This document shows, one piece after another, positions 5,199-21,297 of a stretch of DNA of 64,000 bases (within the stretch, counting starts at the first letter, position 1; every line of letters begins with the position of its first letter). The position numbers and the translations under genes were made by a program. This DNA comes from an uncultured Anaerolineales bacterium (GTDB taxonomy: Bacteria; Planctomycetota; Phycisphaerae; FEN-1346), in contig CAYNLG010000009.1 of the NCBI GenBank assembly GCA_964397995.1, positions 1,089 through 65,088 on the forward strand, written 5' to 3'. The notes beneath the pieces are model-generated. The model did not search any database. It saw nothing but the letters and a program-made list of their open reading frames with translations, and had not been told where the DNA came from.

Positions 5199-8100
5199 CT
5201 ACGGTTTCTCGAGCTCCATCGGGTAGTTCACAAGCGCCGCGACCAGCTCCAGGCACCCGAGGCGACGGATCTCGTCGCCCTCGAGGTATCGGCGACGGAA
5301 CTCGCGGGCCATCTCGGCGCGGAGCGGCTCGGGCGCGGGGCCCATCATGAAACACAGCTCGCGGGCGCCCATCTGCCCGGCCGACCACTTCTCGGGATCG
5401 CTCGCCGGGCCCCACGGCGTGTCCGGATACAGGCCCCGACCGGTCGCGATCCATCGGGCCGAAACGAGCGGCCAGAGGATGTCCCCGCCCCGCCGCCCGC
5501 CGCGCTTGACGGCCCCGCCGGCCATCAGCGACGCCCGGCCGCCTTTCGACGCGACGTCGAAGATGAACGGCATGTCCTGGACCTGACCGGTCGCTTTCCA
5601 GCGGGCCTTGGCGGCCTCGTACTCGCGGACCAGCCACGCGTGCTTCTTCCACAGGGCCGTCGCGTACCCCGCCCGGATGGCCGGAAACCGCGGGTTGACG
5701 ACCGTCCCCACGACCTCGAGCAACAGCCGGTGGACCCCCGGTTCGAGGATCACCACCGTGCCCGACTCGATCCGCCGCCCGTGCAGGAAGACCGTCGACT
5801 GCGGGTGGCCGAAGTGCTGACCCCCGGGGATGCGGACGCACGTCGGTTCGCCGACCTCCAGCGTTGTGTAGAGGAGGCGCCGGCGCCTGGGGTCGCCCGG
5901 CGGAAAGAGGTATCTCTCCTTCGTGATGCCCGCGAGCCCCCTGAACGCCTTCTCCGAGAGGTGGCGGAAGGTGTAGTCCGCCCCGCCGAATGCGAACGTG
6001 TCGCCCGCCTCGATCCACGCGCCCTCGCGCCCGCCGAGGTCCGCAAGCACGTCCTCTTCGCCCGGCTCGACGCCACCGGCCCACAGCCACTCGGCCACGA
6101 GCCCGCCCGCCTCGAAAGGAACGGTTCGAGGCGTCGCGTCCCCCGGTGGGGTCTCGGCCTCGAGCGTCACGACCGCCGGCGGCGGGGCGGGCGGACGTTG
6201 CAGGCCGAGGCGGCCCTCCTCCCCGAGCAGCATCAGGGCGTTGGCGCCGGGCACCCCGAGGATGGAACGGCTGACCGCGTACACGCCGACCGGGCCCCAC
6301 TCGCACGAGAACGCCAGCCGCATGTGCCCCGCCGAGGCCAGCACCTGCCGCCGTTCATGCTCGGTGTACTCGGCGAATATCAGGTCCGCGGCGAACGGGT
6401 ACCGCGCCATCGGCCCGGGCAGCCGCTCCCCGTGTTCGCCCTGGTACGGCCGCTGGAGCGTGCGCGGCATGATCAGCTCGACGGCCCGCTCGCCGTGGCG
6501 ACGATCGTCGAAGACGCGGGCGAGGAACCCGTGACCCGTCGCTTGGTCGGCGCCGGCTTCCCAGTTGTTGACCCAGTCGAGCTTCGTGCGGTACAGGCGC
6601 TTGCCGGACGCCATCCGCGCCATTAGCGCCCGGAAGATCTCGCGGCCCACCGGCGTCCGGGTCCGCGCGCGGAGCTGGGCCACGTGGTGCGTGCGGAACA
6701 GCAGCCGCGGGTGCTCGTCGGGCGCCAGCGGCGGCACGTCGCCCGTGTCCCATGACGTCGGCCAGCCCGTGACCGTGGCGGGGCCTTCGCGCGGCTCGTC
6801 GTTGCACGTGCCGGTGAACCGGGCCGTCAGGCCCTTGTCCGAAGACCGCAGCTCGATCGTATATTCCGCGTAGGCCGCGTGCCGCCACAGGTCGCTGCCA
6901 AGCAGTATCTCCACGCGCAGCTTCGCCGGGTCGCCCGCCTCCCAGCCGATCACCCGGCCGCGATGGTTCCGCTTGTTGAACTTGACGGCGAACGCGTGGA
7001 AGTCCTCCTCCCACTCGCCGCCGCGCCGCGAGAACACCAGCAGCAGCGGGAACGCCCCCGAGTGATCCGGCCGGTCCGACCAGGTGATGCCGCCGTCGAG
7101 CTCGATGTGCACCACGCCGTCATCGGGCAGCGTCTCGATCCGCGTCCCCGGCCGGGCGACGTCCACCGGCCGGCCGCCGATCCGCGTCCACGCCTCGGGA
7201 CCGGGCTCGCCGCCGGGGAGGTCCGGCTCGGGCGCAGGGGTCGGCGGGGCTCGGCCGGTCCGCGACTCGATGGCCCGGCGGGCCTCGCCGACCGCCTCGT
7301 CCATCCCGGGCGCGCCCTGGCTGAGCGCGCGGCTGAGGGCCTCGGCGGTATCGGCTGAAGCGTCGCCGACGGCCCCGAGGACGGTGACCCAGGCCTTGAG
7401 CTCCTCGGGGTCGGGGTAGATCCGCCACGCCAGCAGCCCCTCGGCGACGGCCGGCCCCGCCGCCGGCCCGATCCGCGCGATCGCCGCCCGCGCCGCCGCC
7501 TCGGCCGCCTGGCCGCGCTCCTCATACACGGTCTCCTCGACGAGGACGGGCGCGGCCTCCGGCCCCATGGCGGCGAGCGTCGAGACAACCATCTCGCGCA
7601 GGCGCTCCGGCGGGTCGTCCCGCCGGCGCTGCCGCCCGCCCTCAAGCAGGTTCAGCAACGCCGGCGCCTGGTCGGCCGTCGCCACCAGGGCCATCATCCG
7701 GCCGAGGTCCAGCCGGTCGTCCTCGGACTCGATCGCACTGCAGTGCCGCAGCGCCAGCGGCGCCAGGTCCCCCTGTCGCGCCTGCACCTGTGCCTTGGCC
7801 GACGAGGCGATCGACGTCTCCGTATCGCCCAGCGCCGCGAGCAGCGCCCCGTACGCCGCCGACGCCCGCTGCATCGCGGCCTCCTCGACCGCCGCGGCGC
7901 GGACTGCCGAATCCGCGTCTCGGGCGGCGTCGGCCAGCGCCTCGGCGAGGTCGGGGTCGGCGCTGTCGTCGGGCAGTGCCCGGACGGCTGCCGCACGAAC
8001 CGCGGGACCGGCGTCGTGGAGCAGCGCGCCCAGTCCCTCCGGGCACAATCGCGCCCCCAGCGCCCCCAGCCCGCGCGCCGCCGCAAGGCGAACGCCCGCG

Positions 8101-8654
8101 TCGGGGTCCTCGGCCGCGGCTTCCAGCGCGTCGACCGCCTCCGGGCCGCCGATCGACGCCAGGGCCTCCAGCGCCGCCCGCCGGTGCGCCGGGTCCTCGG
8201 TCTTCGCGACCCAGGCCAGGTACGGGACCGCCTCGGGCCAGCCGGTCTCGCCCAGCCGCCGGGTCTCGCCCAGCCGCGTCGCGGGGTCCTTCAGGCGGGC
8301 GACCACGTCATCGGTGATCCGCGGCCGCAGCCACCACGAGCCGAGTATCACCATCCCGGTGCCCACGGCGGCCATGGCGATCAGGACCAACAGTGTCCGC
8401 AGCCAGTTCCACCCCGTCCCGTTCTCAGGCATGTCGCTCATCGCGGATCCTCTCGCTGTTGCGGGTTCCACCAGCCTCAACCCGCGAACGGCGGGAACGT
8501 ACGCGGTCTTTCTGACGTTGACCGAGACGAGGCGCTGGACGGCCGTCGACGCGATGGACCTCGACGCCGAGGACCGCGGGTTCTGGTGGTACGATTGCCC
8601 GAAGCTCGAGCACCAGCTCAACAACATCCGCCACGTCCAGCACCACGCCGCCAT
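5199..8654 (-). CDS. large membrane-anchored HEAT/PBS-lyase-repeat protein with a C-terminal domain of unknown function (possibly polysaccharide-lyase-like)
   Basis: N-terminal TM helix, then about 350 aa of HEAT-like repeats (EAVDALEAAAEDPDAGVRLAAARGLGALG...), then a roughly 600-aa non-repetitive domain. 1151 aa in total. The many opposite-strand ORFs across this span are compositional shadows. Confidence 0.6.
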   Translation of the reverse strand: MAAWCWTWRMLLSWCSSFGQSYHQNPRSSASRSIASTAVQRLVSVNVRKTAYVPAVRGLRLVEPATARGSAMSDMPENGTGWNWLRTLLVLIAMAAVGTGMVILGSWWLRPRITDDVVARLKDPATRLGETRRLGETGWPEAVPYLAWVAKTEDPAHRRAALEALASIGGPEAVDALEAAAEDPDAGVRLAAARGLGALGARLCPEGLGALLHDAGPAVRAAAVRALPDDSADPDLAEALADAARDADSAVRAAAVEEAAMQRASAAYGALLAALGDTETSIASSAKAQVQARQGDLAPLALRHCSAIESEDDRLDLGRMMALVATADQAPALLNLLEGGRQRRRDDPPERLREMVVSTLAAMGPEAAPVLVEETVYEERGQAAEAAARAAIARIGPAAGPAVAEGLLAWRIYPDPEELKAWVTVLGAVGDASADTAEALSRALSQGAPGMDEAVGEARRAIESRTGRAPPTPAPEPDLPGGEPGPEAWTRIGGRPVDVARPGTRIETLPDDGVVHIELDGGITWSDRPDHSGAFPLLLVFSRRGGEWEEDFHAFAVKFNKRNHRGRVIGWEAGDPAKLRVEILLGSDLWRHAAYAEYTIELRSSDKGLTARFTGTCNDEPREGPATVTGWPTSWDTGDVPPLAPDEHPRLLFRTHHVAQLRARTRTPVGREIFRALMARMASGKRLYRTKLDWVNNWEAGADQATGHGFLARVFDDRRHGERAVELIMPRTLQRPYQGEHGERLPGPMARYPFAADLIFAEYTEHERRQVLASAGHMRLAFSCEWGPVGVYAVSRSILGVPGANALMLLGEEGRLGLQRPPAPPPAVVTLEAETPPGDATPRTVPFEAGGLVAEWLWAGGVEPGEEDVLADLGGREGAWIEAGDTFAFGGADYTFRHLSEKAFRGLAGITKERYLFPPGDPRRRRLLYTTLEVGEPTCVRIPGGQHFGHPQSTVFLHGRRIESGTVVILEPGVHRLLLEVVGTVVNPRFPAIRAGYATALWKKHAWLVREYEAAKARWKATGQVQDMPFIFDVASKGGRASLMAGGAVKRGGRRGGDILWPLVSARWIATGRGLYPDTPWGPASDPEKWSAGQMGARELCFMMGPAPEPLRAEMAREFRRRYLEGDEIRRLGCLELVAALVNYPMELEKP

Positions 8655-8689
8655 CCTCTCGGTGTGGCTCCGCCTTACCGGTGGCCATC

Positions 8690-9171
8690 TTGAACGCCAT
8701 GCGGAGCAGCCCGGGGTTCATCTCCTCGTTGGCCCCGCGGAGGGCGTTCTCGACCCAGGTGTCCCCGTACTTCCTGGCGACTTCCGTGAGGTAAATGACA
8801 GTTTTGAGCGCCTCGAGTTTTCAGAAAAAGAGGCGGAGATTGCGGTCGTCTCCGGTCCAGTATTCGAGGAGCCGGGCCGTCGTGCGCGTCACGTCCGGGT
8901 GGCCGGCGTCACGCCAAACGGCGACCTTCTCCCGGATGCGGTTGATCTGCCGGTTCTCTTCGATGCGGTCACGGGTCCATTGCGTGTCAAAGACCATCGG
9001 CCCACCGCGGCCCTTCTTCTTGGGGGCAGGGATGGGCACGAAATAGGAACTGGGGCGGCGCTCGTCGGCGATCTTGTCCGTGATCCCCTGGTCGGCGAAC
9101 TCGAAGTGGCGCGTGGGTTCCGCGAAGGGGGAGTTGATGAGGGGGTTCTCGATGACGACTTGGGCTGCCAT
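8690..9171 (-). pseudogene. type III restriction enzyme Res / DEAD-box helicase N-terminal remnant (in-frame TGA, degenerate Walker A, truncated)
   Basis: MAAQVVIENPLINSPFAEPTRHFEF...LLEYWTGDDRNLRLFF-TGA-KLEALKTVIYLTEVARKYG...FKMATGKAEPH. The N-terminal signature is conserved. TGA replaces the expected Cys in FFCQ, a single-nucleotide change from TGC/TGT. Motif I reads MATGKAEP rather than MATGTGKT, and nothing recognisable follows. Confidence 0.5.
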
Positions 9172-9279
9172 GCGTGCCCCGCTAAGCAAGAGACATGCCG
9201 CTTGGCCGCGGCCATCAACAGCAGAACGCAAGCCTTCTGCCATTGATCGCCCAGTACGCAGCAGCGGCTCGGCAAATCA

Positions 9280-9594
9280 ATGAGGTGCGCGGGTCTCGTT
9301 CGACATGACTGCGTGGACACGGCGATGAAGGACGGCAGCCGCTGGGTGTTCTTCCAAGAAGGCGAGCCTTTGCCGGAAGAGGAGGTCAGCCGGTACAGAA
9401 AGTTGCGCGTGCGGGACCGCGTGGCGGCGGAGTACGTGCTGGAGGTCGCAGCACGGCTCGGATGGCAGTTGACCGGCCCCGACACGTCGGTTCCCCCCGC
9501 CAGGTGCTGCATCATGCTGGACGAGACGAGCGGGCCGCGCGTCGAGGGGTACCGGAGTTCCCAGGAAGCCCGAAGGCAGAACGGCCAGGCGTGA
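9280..9594 (+). CDS. orphan hypothetical protein (lower-GC ORF)
   Basis: 104-aa ORF with balanced composition and codon usage less GC-biased than its neighbours. There is a possible internal start at MKDGSRW. No family recognised. Confidence 0.3.
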   Translation: MRCAGLVRHDCVDTAMKDGSRWVFFQEGEPLPEEEVSRYRKLRVRDRVAAEYVLEVAARLGWQLTGPDTSVPPARCCIMLDETSGPRVEGYRSSQEARRQNGQA

Positions 9595-9699
9595 CGCCGG
9601 TCGAACGAGGTTCTCGGCCGGAAACTCACATGACCTTGACACCGAAGGGGGTATGATGGCTGGGGGGCTGGGGGTCTCGAGACGACCGGGAGAGGCGCG

Positions 9700-12210
9700 A
9701 TGCGAACGGCGTGGGGCGTGCTGGGAGCCGTGGGTGCGGTGTGGGTGTGGGCCTTGGCGGCCGCCGCGTCGTCGGCCGCGGAGCCGCCGCCCGCCTCGGC
9801 CGAGCCGGCGCCGCCTGAGACGGCCGAGACCGAGGCGGAAGCGCCGCCCGCCATGCCTTTGCCGCCCGACAGCCTCTACGTCACCGCGGAGGGCGGGCGC
9901 CTGGTGCTGAGCGGCCGGCCGCAGCGGTTCTGGGCCGCCATCGGCAAACTCTACGTCGAGAGCCGCGTCGAGCCCGGCGACCCCCCGGCCGTCCGCCTGG
10001 AGAAGGCCCGGGCCGGATGGCGGGCCACGGGTCAGCTTCTCGACCGCTTCCGGCGGCTCGGCTTCAACGCGTTCCGCTTCTGGAAGGGCGTGCCCGACGG
10101 CGACCCCCGGGCAACGCCGCCCTACGTGCCGACGTACACGCCGGGCGACGGGTCGCGGGCCGACGACATCGACGCCTTCGTCGCGGCCGCCAAGACCCGC
10201 GGGATGCGCATCTGGTTGGCGGCGCTCAACGGCGGCGAGGCGCGGCCGGAAGACGTGGGCATCCTCAACGATCCCGCGACGGCGGAGGCCTGGGCGGCCG
10301 CCGTCCGCGAGCAGTGCCGCGCGAAGGACGGCCAAGTCGTCGCCGGCTGGAAACTGAACCGGAACCCGGCGCGGGCGTGGGATGCGCGGCTCGAGGCCCT
10401 CGCCATCCGCCACATGCAACGCGTCGCCACGCACGTCAACCCGCACACGGGCCTCCGCTGGTGCGACGACCCCGTCTTCGCCGTCTGGGAACTCTCGAAC
10501 GAGGAGTGGTGGGTCAGCCGCATGGTGCGCGGCCAGTGGCAGACGCTGCCGGCCTTCTTCCGCGGCACGCTCGCGGCCAAGTGGAACGCGTGGTTGCGCG
10601 AGCAGTACCGCGACGACGCGGGGCTCGGGAAGGCCTGGGGCGAGCTCCTGCCCGGCGAGAGCCTGGACCGCGGGACGGTCCTCTTTGCCCCGATGCGGGG
10701 GGAGACCCGGGCGGCCGCCGGTCTCAACGACGCCAACCCGCACGCGAAGGCGGCCCTGGAGGCCCTGCCGGTGACGGTCACGCGGGCCGACGTCGCCCCG
10801 GCCCGGGCTTCGGACGTCCTGCGGTTCCTGGTGCGGCTCCAGATTGCCCACAAACAGCGCGAGGCGGCCGCCATCAAGCCCCTCGGCAAGAGCACGCGGT
10901 TGTCGCCGATGGTCTACGATACGGGCATCGGCTACGAGGTCCAGAGCCAGTACCTGCACCAGCACGCCGACGCGGTGGCCCACGACGCCTACGTCAACGG
11001 CTGGGGTCCGCCCCTGGAGGAGGCGCTCGCTGAGATCGACGCGCCGAACGAGCAGCAGCGGCTGGTGGCCGTCCTGCACGCCGAGCGGATGGCGCGGAAC
11101 GCCGGGCCGTGGGTCAACTGGCTCCTGAAACCGCCCGGCATCCACCAGGGCGTCCCGTGGTTGGAGCACAACCGGCACCCCGACAAGCCCTTCCTCTGCT
11201 ATGAGACGCAGATCCAGCAGCCCGCGAAGTACCGGGCGGATTTCCCGCTGCGGCTGGCGGCCCTGGCCAGTCTCCAGGACTGGGGCTGGGTCTCGTGGCA
11301 CTACTTCCAGGCGCCCCAGGACCTGGCCGAGGAGGCGCGGCCGTTCACGCGGCCGATGGACGTGACGACGGGCGGCCACCCGCAGGGGTACCACTACACC
11401 TTCGACGAGGTGCAGGCGGCGACGATGCGTGCGGCCGGACTGCTGTTTCGGCACTTCGCGGTCGACCCGGCACCGGAGCCGACGACGTTCGTCTACGGCC
11501 GCCACAGCCTCTACGACCCCGCGAGCATGAACTACGCCGGAAGCTACGGCATGACCGGCCTGGACATGGTCCACACGGTCTACCAGCACGGGGTGCGGCT
11601 CGTGATCGACCCCGGTCGCGAGGACGACGAGGCGCGCGGCCCGGTGGTGGCCGTCGGCGACCGCCACACGCACAACCCCTACACGCCGACTGACCAGGTG
11701 ACGTTCGACTGGAAGCGGGGCTGGATGAAGCTGGACGCGCCGGCGGCGATGGCGTGGGCGGGCCTCTTCGGCCGGACCGATGGCGAGGTCGCGTTCGAGC
11801 GCGGCGCCCGGTTCGGTAACGTCCGCATCGAGAATCCGCCCGGCATCTTCGACCCGGTCTCCAGCGAGGAAGGCTACCTGGCCTTCGCCCTCGTCAGCCG
11901 CGACGGCAAGCCTCTGGCCGCGTGCCGGCGCGCGGTGATGGCCCTCGTCTCGACGAGCTTCAACGCCGGGTACGCGTTCGGCCCGAAGGGCGGCACCGGG
12001 GGCGGCAAGAAGGGCGGGCTGCCCGTGCTGGAGGCGGCCGTCGGGGCGACGGTTCACTGCCCGGCTCTCGATGGCTTCCGGTACACGCTGATCGACTGGG
12101 AACTCGAGCAGATCGGCACCGGCATCGTCGAGAACGGCCGCCTGGAGGTCCCGCCCGACCCGCGGATCTTCACGATCGAGCTCAGCCGCTTCGGCCTCGT
12201 GCCAAGATGA
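9700..12210 (+). CDS. secreted glycoside-hydrolase-like protein (clan GH-A TIM-barrel-like; WELSNEEWW motif)
   Basis: Signal peptide followed by an Ala/Pro/Glu linker. AVWELSNEEWW resembles the GH-A acid/base NE(P) motif. The 1009-aa minus-strand ORF 9277..12306 is a low-complexity shadow of this gene. Confidence 0.5.
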   Translation: MRTAWGVLGAVGAVWVWALAAAASSAAEPPPASAEPAPPETAETEAEAPPAMPLPPDSLYVTAEGGRLVLSGRPQRFWAAIGKLYVESRVEPGDPPAVRLEKARAGWRATGQLLDRFRRLGFNAFRFWKGVPDGDPRATPPYVPTYTPGDGSRADDIDAFVAAAKTRGMRIWLAALNGGEARPEDVGILNDPATAEAWAAAVREQCRAKDGQVVAGWKLNRNPARAWDARLEALAIRHMQRVATHVNPHTGLRWCDDPVFAVWELSNEEWWVSRMVRGQWQTLPAFFRGTLAAKWNAWLREQYRDDAGLGKAWGELLPGESLDRGTVLFAPMRGETRAAAGLNDANPHAKAALEALPVTVTRADVAPARASDVLRFLVRLQIAHKQREAAAIKPLGKSTRLSPMVYDTGIGYEVQSQYLHQHADAVAHDAYVNGWGPPLEEALAEIDAPNEQQRLVAVLHAERMARNAGPWVNWLLKPPGIHQGVPWLEHNRHPDKPFLCYETQIQQPAKYRADFPLRLAALASLQDWGWVSWHYFQAPQDLAEEARPFTRPMDVTTGGHPQGYHYTFDEVQAATMRAAGLLFRHFAVDPAPEPTTFVYGRHSLYDPASMNYAGSYGMTGLDMVHTVYQHGVRLVIDPGREDDEARGPVVAVGDRHTHNPYTPTDQVTFDWKRGWMKLDAPAAMAWAGLFGRTDGEVAFERGARFGNVRIENPPGIFDPVSSEEGYLAFALVSRDGKPLAACRRAVMALVSTSFNAGYAFGPKGGTGGGKKGGLPVLEAAVGATVHCPALDGFRYTLIDWELEQIGTGIVENGRLEVPPDPRIFTIELSRFGLVPR

Positions 12211-19942: not shown

Positions 19943-21297
19943 GCGAGACCGACCGCCTTCGCCGCCTCGACCGCGCCCACCTGTGGCACCCGTTCACGCC
20001 GATGGGCCAGTGGGCCGAAGACCCGCCCCTTGTCATCGCCGCCGGCGAGCGCGAGTGGCTCATCGACACCGATGGCCGGCGGTACCTCGACGGCGTCTCC
20101 AGTCTCTGGTGCAACCTGCACGGGCACCGGCACCCGCGGCTCGACGCGGCCGTGCGCGCCCAGCTCGACCGGATCGCGCACTCGACGCTCCTGGGCCTGG
20201 CGTCGCCGCCGTCGGCGGAGCTCGCGGCCCGGCTCGTCGGCCTGGCGCCCGAGGGCCTGACCCGCGTCTTCTACTCGGACTCCGGGGCGACCGCCGTCGA
20301 GATCGCCCTCAAGATGGCCTTCCAGTACTGCCAGCAGCGCGACCCGCCGCGCCCCGAGCGGACCCGCTTCATCCGCCTCCAGCACGCCTACCACGGCGAC
20401 ACCTTGGGGGCGGTGAGCGTCGGCGGCATCGACCTCTTCCACGCGATCTACCGGCCGCTGCTCTTCGAGACGATCGAGACCCCGGCGCCGTACTGCTACC
20501 GCTGCCCCCTCGGCGCGGACCCCGCGACGTGCGGCCTGGCGTGTGCCGCCAGGATGGAGGCGATCGTCGCCGACCACGCCGACGAGACGGCCGCCGTGAT
20601 CCTCGAGCCGCTCGTCCAGGGCGCGGGCGGCATGATCGTCCATCCCGAGGGGTATCTGCGGCGCGTGGCCGACGCCTGCCGCCGCCACGACGTCCTGCTC
20701 ATTCTGGACGAGGTGGCCGTCGGGTTCGGGCGGACAGGGCGCCTGTTCGCCTGCGAGCACGAGGGCGTCGCGCCCGACCTGATGGCCGTTGCCAAGGGCA
20801 TCAGCGGCGGCTACCTGCCGCTGGCGGCCACGCTCGCCTCCGAGCGGATTTACGGGGCCTTCCTCGGCGACCCGGCCGAGGGGCGGACCTTCTTCCACGG
20901 CCACACGTACACGGGCAACGCTCTGGCGTGCGCGGCCGGGTTGGCGAGCCTTGACGTCTTCGAGGAGGAGGGCGTCCTGGAGCGCGTCCGCGCCCTGTCG
21001 GACCGCCTGGGGACGCTGCTCCAGCCGGTGGCCGACTTGCCGCACGTCGGCGAGGTCCGCTGGCGCGGCCTGATGGTGGGCATCGAACTGGTGGCCGACC
21101 GCGCGTCGCGCGCGCCGTATCCGGCCACCGACCGCCGCGGCGCCGCCGCGTGTCGCGCCGCCCGCGCCCGCGGCGCCTGGATCCGTCCGCTCGGGGACGT
21201 GGTCATCCTGATGCCGCCGTACTGCATCTCGGAGGAGAACCTGGCGCGGCTGGTGGAGGCGGCAGGCAAGGGCATCGAGGAGGCGACCGGCCCATGA
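19939..21297 (+). CDS. bioA: adenosylmethionine-8-amino-7-oxononanoate aminotransferase
   Basis: HLWHPFT N-terminus, class III PLP aminotransferase fold, and AVAKGISGGYLPLAA containing the PLP lysine. The listed ORF 18811..21297 is over-extended. Confidence 0.9.
   Translation: MSETDRLRRLDRAHLWHPFTPMGQWAEDPPLVIAAGEREWLIDTDGRRYLDGVSSLWCNLHGHRHPRLDAAVRAQLDRIAHSTLLGLASPPSAELAARLVGLAPEGLTRVFYSDSGATAVEIALKMAFQYCQQRDPPRPERTRFIRLQHAYHGDTLGAVSVGGIDLFHAIYRPLLFETIETPAPYCYRCPLGADPATCGLACAARMEAIVADHADETAAVILEPLVQGAGGMIVHPEGYLRRVADACRRHDVLLILDEVAVGFGRTGRLFACEHEGVAPDLMAVAKGISGGYLPLAATLASERIYGAFLGDPAEGRTFFHGHTYTGNALACAAGLASLDVFEEEGVLERVRALSDRLGTLLQPVADLPHVGEVRWRGLMVGIELVADRASRAPYPATDRRGAAACRAARARGAWIRPLGDVVILMPPYCISEENLARLVEAAGKGIEEATGP

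Follow-up and report, generated by a model that had tools for sequence, protein, structure and literature searches.

A remnant of a type III-type restriction gene

The minus strand of positions 8677 to 9171 very probably holds the non-functional remnant of a restriction-subunit (Res) gene from a type III-type restriction–modification (R–M) system of the NCBIfam family NF046055 (BPTD_3080 family restriction endonuclease). What is left amounts to codons 1–165 of about 1000, or about 17% of the protein. It is interrupted by a TGA at codon 117 and breaks off inside the Walker A motif, where it abuts a fragment of a second, convergent gene. The window, meaning the whole 64-kb stretch of DNA that was analysed, comes from an uncultured high-GC bacterium. 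An earlier note on this DNA had proposed a decayed N-terminal relic of a type III Res gene, and the family match given below bears this out. The main addition to that reading concerns what it called a corrupted Walker A, which is better read as the junction with the second gene fragment. The features of the locus are listed here.

5199–8441, minus strand: HEAT-repeat gene, 1080 aa, start ATG at 8441 with GAGAGG before it
8350–9700, no strand assigned: lower-GC patch of about 1.3 kb, GC 0.59–0.67 between host genes of 0.75–0.84
8476–8676, plus strand: DinB-superfamily-like gene fragment (phmmer, family HMM and tblastn), reading ...TAVDAMDLDAEDRGFWWYDCPKLEHQLNNIRHVQHHAAILSVWLR; its 3' break abuts the Res break
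8677–8820, minus strand: Res relic, codons 118–165, in the same frame and without indels; its last residues, KMATG, are the start of Walker A
8821–8823, minus strand: in-frame TGA where relatives have the invariant Cys of LFFCQ
8824–9171, minus strand: Res relic, codons 1–116, N-terminal domain of a BPTD_3080-family restriction subunit, equal to a 116-aa ORF in public assemblies (P0001)
9172–9324, no strand assigned: non-coding stretch upstream of the relic start codon, with no coding periodicity and without resemblance in DNA to what lies upstream in relatives
9325–9594, plus strand: orphan 89-aa ORF with coding periodicity (GC 0.66/0.51/0.86 by codon position), between the relic and the 836-aa gene
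9700–12210, plus strand: gene for an 836-aa protein of a conserved uncharacterised family, the putative hydrolase of the earlier note

Homology and state of preservation

Starting from the ATG at 9171, the minus-strand translation of the relic runs MAAQVVIENPLINSPFAEPTRHFEF...LLEYWTGDDRNLRLFF up to the TGA (this part is also given as MAAQVVIENPLINSPFAEPTRHFEF...ARLLEYWTGDDRNLRLFF) and continues in frame as KLEALKTVIYLTEVARKYGDTWVENALRGANEEMNPGLLRMAFKMATG, followed by KAEPHRED.... The frame after the TGA, KLEALKTVIYLTEVARKYGDTWVENALRGANEEMNPGLLRMAFKMATG plus KAEPHREDGG..., stays open until a stop at 8425–8427. The earlier note describes this sequence correctly but for a few bases. Relic residues 7–165 correspond to positions 1–162 of the 970 positions of NF046055 with an E value of 7.6e-45, a match far beyond chance. 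The relic scores 153.2 bits against a curated cut-off of 800, compared with 1184.5 bits for an intact relative (locus L005). It derives from this family but is no working member of it.

An HMM built from 56 full-length relatives was run unfiltered on all six frames of 8200–9300 with a report limit of E ≤ 100. The relic was returned as a single domain covering positions 2–163 of 993 (E 1.4e-80, mean posterior accuracy 0.98), and no other Res domain was reported in any frame of this interval at that limit. A search of 5.8 billion proteins gave 534 relatives with at most 66% identity, many of them labelled "type III restriction enzyme" and carrying PF04851. Over relic residues 1–165, identity to relatives from many phyla was 57–66%. 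Among the matches listed, all proteins from this search were 340 aa or shorter. These lengths were not taken to reflect a real class of short proteins, and full-length relatives from genome loci were used instead.

Pfam and PADLOC gave no match for the relic fragment itself, because it lacks the ATPase core with which their ResIII models begin. A phmmer search of PDB sequences with the relic and with a full-length relative as queries gave no hits, and a literature search for 'BPTD_3080' returned no papers.

The relic has retained the composition of a coding sequence. GC at the three codon positions of the minus frame is 0.63/0.45/0.85 in 8824–9171 and 0.58/0.40/0.88 in 8677–8820, so that third-position GC is 0.85–0.88 as against 0.92–0.94 in host genes. 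No frameshift occurs across the 165 codons. Of 36 columns that are invariant among the 56 relatives, 34 are kept, and the two losses, Cys117 (the stop) and Gln118 (now Lys), are adjacent. In columns where at least 80% of the relatives agree, the relic departs 11 times; within the family, the median is 5 such departures and the 95th percentile 11. The retention of nearly all invariant residues suggests that the decay of the gene is probably recent. Conservation of the 165 remaining codons at this high level would also fit continued selection on the fragment, a reading that is taken up below.

The in-frame stop codon

The nonsense codon that the earlier note had placed at the Cys of FFCQ was confirmed at this position, the column being Cys in all 56 relatives. 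In an alignment of 25 sequences, the TGA likewise falls on the Cys of LFFCQ, which is at least 90% conserved there, and the alignment continues through FKMATG, after which the relatives read SGKT. The codon after the TGA is AAA (Lys) in place of an invariant Gln. Relatives encode the two residues as TGC or TGT followed by CAG or CAA, so the TGA AAA of the relic requires at least two adjacent substitutions.

The TGA is present in all four assemblies. Moreover, 1101 bp including the TGA and the junction are 100% identical in the separately assembled runs SRR7048219, SRR7048224 and SRR7048228. A base-call error in one assembly, which the earlier note had named as a possible refutation, is excluded by this identity.

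The junction within Walker A

The homology ends abruptly. Of 87 blastn alignments to the DNA of relatives, 68 break off at 8677/8678, and this sets the limit of the relic at 8677 and not at 8690, where the earlier note had put it. Protein and DNA homology both cease within 1–2 bp of 8677, after MATG; relatives continue with GSGKT where the relic has the junction 8676/8677. The MATGKAEP string is accordingly best described from these alignments as a probable deletion junction and not a Walker A altered by point mutation. Of the truncated and corrupted motif I proposed earlier, the truncation therefore stands, and the corruption by mutation is replaced by a junction with the DinB-like fragment.

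A continuation of Res homology past MATG, with a small internal deletion and subsequent decay, was also considered, as a MAFFT alignment placed PHRED...LRAIVPPEP...RLGQ on family columns. It was ruled out: the unfiltered six-frame HMM match ends at position 163, DNA similarity stops at 8677/8678, and codon periodicity switches strand at the same place.

The DinB-like gene fragment

The sequence on the far side of the junction is read on the opposite strand. Codon-position GC of 8443–8676 is 0.64/0.47/0.87, the pattern of a plus-strand gene, and KAEPHRED... is the antisense of a DinB-like gene fragment. This fragment, also shown as ...AVDAMDLDAEDRGFWWYDCPKLEHQLNNIRHVQHHAA..., is unannotated, has lost both ends, and lies between the Res relic and the start of the HEAT gene. 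A phmmer search of 1.84 billion representatives with the plus-strand peptide returned 104 proteins at E ≤ 1e-3 (best 2.4e-13). These homologues are mostly 120–190 aa long and the matched region lies near their C-termini. Positions 88–156 of 173 of the family HMM align to 8476–8682 of the window, and tblastn agrees. The fragment thus covers about 67 of about 173 positions, with about 87 N-terminal and about 17 C-terminal codons missing.

Assignment to the DinB superfamily is by similarity. The fragment aligns to the C-terminal helices of proteins 170–190 aa long, including the histidine-rich ...KLEHQL.NIRH.QHHAA... motif, and several homologues have weak matches to DinB_2 (PF12867). Nevertheless, the piece at 8476–8676 is partial and falls short of the full four-helix-bundle domain of about 130–170 residues that characterizes the superfamily; its homologues lie mostly below the DinB_2 gathering threshold, which was passed by one of ten tested, and Pfam gave no match for the fragment itself. 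An inverted copy of a HEAT repeat was considered as the source of the fragment on account of a 38-nt inverted repeat with 79% complementarity, and was ruled out (BLASTP E 0.34).

The lower-GC patch and its neighbors

The lower-GC patch is probably the remainder of a horizontally acquired island. It contains the DinB-like fragment and the Res relic, followed by the 153-bp non-coding stretch and the 89-aa ORF. Repeats, tRNA genes and integrase genes were looked for at the patch borders and none was found. Upstream of the relic start codon, blastn alignments to relatives reach no further than 9175; the non-coding stretch from 9172 to 9324 may hold the old res promoter. The 89-aa ORF matched nothing but itself among 5.8 billion proteins, and nothing in Pfam or NCBIfam. 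It could be an orphan gene of the island or a further relic that is past recognition. The relic does lie between the HEAT gene and the 836-aa gene, as the earlier note had it, with this ORF intervening as well.

The mechanically called HEAT ORF spans 5199–8654 (1151 aa), and its extension beyond 8441 is a wrong-frame antisense reading of the DinB-like fragment. Gene calls place the start at 8441, and orthologues, whose alignment begins at residue 2, support it. It lies 236 bp downstream of the relic on the same strand, with 34 bp between the DinB-like fragment and the HEAT start codon. Orthologues of the HEAT protein (52–54% identity) have different neighbors, and no Res or Mod is found beside them. 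On the other flank, the 836-aa protein matches no Pfam family significantly, the best being GH42 with an E value of 0.053. Its 46 metagenomic relatives (loci L088–L133, 25–59% identity) include tandem duplicates in L109 and L117. The neighbors at these 46 loci are again different, with no HEAT, Res or Mod gene among them.

Intact relatives and the missing methyltransferase

An alignment-based scan of a species-representative genome collection, to which the species of the window does not belong, identified 80 family loci; a single-sequence scan of the same collection found none. The loci come from Planctomycetota, Chloroflexota, Acidobacteriota and Proteobacteria, and also from a Methanoregula. 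Intact Res proteins are 990–1030 aa long in most of them, and NF046055 carries the Pfam domain ResIII (PF04851). In loci L005, L012 and L023, Res scores against NF046055 reach 1184 bits, and a gene for an N6_N4 DNA methylase of 890–940 aa lies downstream of res in the same orientation. The downstream methylase matched the PADLOC MTase_III model PDLC03632 with an E value of 2e-297. The intact order is Res, zero to two inserted genes, and then the methylase. On this sequence evidence, "type III-type res–mod pair" is a fair name for the intact system.

The spacer between res and mod seems to tolerate cargo. TcmP (three-Cys-motif partner) and DUF5131 genes are found there in L005 (4755–6668), and a Fic gene in L023 (12677–13795).

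In the classical type III enzymes EcoP1I and EcoP15I (Mod2Res1), Res is a ResIII-type SF2 ATPase that depends on the Mod methyltransferase. The intact NF046055 loci resemble these systems in that the methylase partner is filed as type III by PADLOC. They differ in having res before mod, sometimes with unrelated genes between, and similarity of the Res protein to solved structures is undetectable by phmmer; the family is known here from its sequences.

The earlier note had suggested a TBLASTN comparison with full-length Res proteins. When the 64 kb were searched in this way with Res proteins of full length (three), Mod proteins (three) and the hitch-hiker proteins, only 9171–8668 was matched, corresponding to Res residues 1–167. 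Neither the rest of Res nor a Mod methyltransferase (N6_N4_Mtase, MTase_III) was detected by tblastn in the window, in agreement with the absence of a mod gene claimed earlier. A candidate Mod relic at 20056–20271 (plus strand), where the C-terminal ~70 residues of the three Mod proteins aligned with E values of 0.006–0.03, was rejected. It lies within the N-terminal part of a long aminotransferase-like ORF and the similarity was judged to be due to chance.

Compared with its family, the relic aligns end to end with positions 1–162 of NF046055 and keeps the invariant N-terminal residues apart from Cys117 and Gln118. In contrast to intact members, it has a stop, its SF2 ATPase core is reduced to an incomplete Walker A (MATGSGKT in full) cut after MATG, and the DEAH box (NDEAHH), the helicase C lobe, the C-terminal region and the Mod partner are absent. 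The protein has lost its ATPase and translocase motifs (GSGKT and all that follows, DEAH box included), its C-terminal helicase lobe and its nuclease region, and the methyltransferase is missing as well. The fragment is therefore predicted to be unable to hydrolyse ATP, to cut DNA or to methylate it.

Origin of the relic and alternative readings

We infer that a complete res–mod pair once stood here and that this lineage lost it by deletion. A horizontally acquired island would have brought in res, mod and the convergent DinB-like gene. A tandem substitution, from TGC-CAR to TGA-AAA, would have created the stop at Cys117. Res codon 165 would have been joined to the DinB-like gene, close to the 3' end of the latter, by a rearrangement, in the simplest case a single deletion of 5 kb or more; the size is estimated from the remaining ~2.5 kb of res, ~2.7 kb of mod and the spacers. 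A second break, beside the start of the HEAT gene, would have taken the 5' two-thirds of the DinB-like gene.

The same present-day sequence would result if the system had never been complete here. In that case the patch, already mosaic, would have come as junk DNA by illegitimate recombination, or as the last sliver of an island that had decayed beforehand, and no functional type III system would have been lost. This appears unlikely, but it is the alternative that carries the most weight. The patch is short and both of its recognisable genes are fragmentary; fragments of the Res family sit in mobile elements elsewhere (for example at L135, described below); and no syntenic intact copy is known from the loci of the flanking-gene orthologues. 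Nevertheless, the relic starts exactly at the family start codon with an undamaged N-terminus, which points to a whole gene that was cut from its 3' side, and the borders of the patch bear no marks of insertion. A much less probable reading is that part of the locus has been kept for use. The 116-aa ORF might be maintained as a stand-alone protein, such as a regulator or decoy, or the captured res promoter or 5' region might drive the HEAT gene, whose own upstream region would have been lost in the same rearrangements. The retained invariant residues and the intact frame fit this, as do the calling of the ORF as a gene in four assemblies and the closeness of the HEAT start on the same strand, with only 34 bp separating the DinB-like fragment from the HEAT start codon. 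However, the 48 codons past the stop are equally well conserved, as in a recently broken gene, and the departures at the well-conserved columns are at the upper edge of the family. Short family matches examined elsewhere were contig-end partials, IS-interrupted genes or truncations, with no conserved stand-alone form among them, and a sigma-70-like promoter was not found on the minus strand, though this is a weak test.

There is scarcely any room for the view that the gene is not interrupted, the TGA being decoded as selenocysteine or a reassigned codon, or being an error of sequencing or assembly. A conserved Cys position occupied by TGA classically marks a selenoprotein, but several observations have already effectively refuted this explanation. 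TGA is the commonest stop in the window and ends 14 of its 22 coding-like long ORFs, including the 836-aa, ResB-like and aminotransferase-like genes, and is therefore an ordinary stop here. No hairpin was found downstream of it (fold z-score +1.1, with 175 of 200 shuffles folding at least as well). In the window, Rfam detected no SECIS family at threshold, and there is no tRNA-Sec, the sole tRNA being tRNA-Val. The neighboring invariant Gln is mutated too, and the base is the same in the three independent assemblies. Moreover, a read-through product would leave Res homology after codon 165, so that function would be lost regardless. The preferred reading remains that of a Res gene broken twice, by the stop and by the junction.

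Damaged copies in other genomes

The locus is an ordinary pseudogene of a curated family and the scar of a lost or never-completed defence system. Its import reaches little beyond annotation: this uncultured bacterium carries the scar of a type III-type R–M system and not a working one, and in public assemblies the 116-aa 'hypothetical protein' deserves to be marked as a pseudogene fragment.

The gain and decay of R–M systems are well documented. In the present sample, the gene was readable at 66 loci, and at about 10 of these (~15% of sampled loci) Res is truncated, internally deleted or interrupted by an IS; in some of the cases from long-read MAGs, the frameshifts may stem from misassembly. 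The relic differs from these other decayed NF046055 copies in being fused directly to a convergent, unrelated gene fragment with no IS at the junction, and in having a separate nonsense mutation. Res is truncated at its 3' end in L009, L046 and L047. In L134 (6001–6645), it is cut at GSGKTV and an IS3-like gene starts 64 bp later. A stump of Res residues 1–209 in L135 (6001–6844) overlaps a Y1 transposase fragment inside an integrase/Rep_trans element. In L065 (9995–15171), both genes of the pair carry in-frame internal deletions, of 262–584 in Res and 162–545 in Mod.
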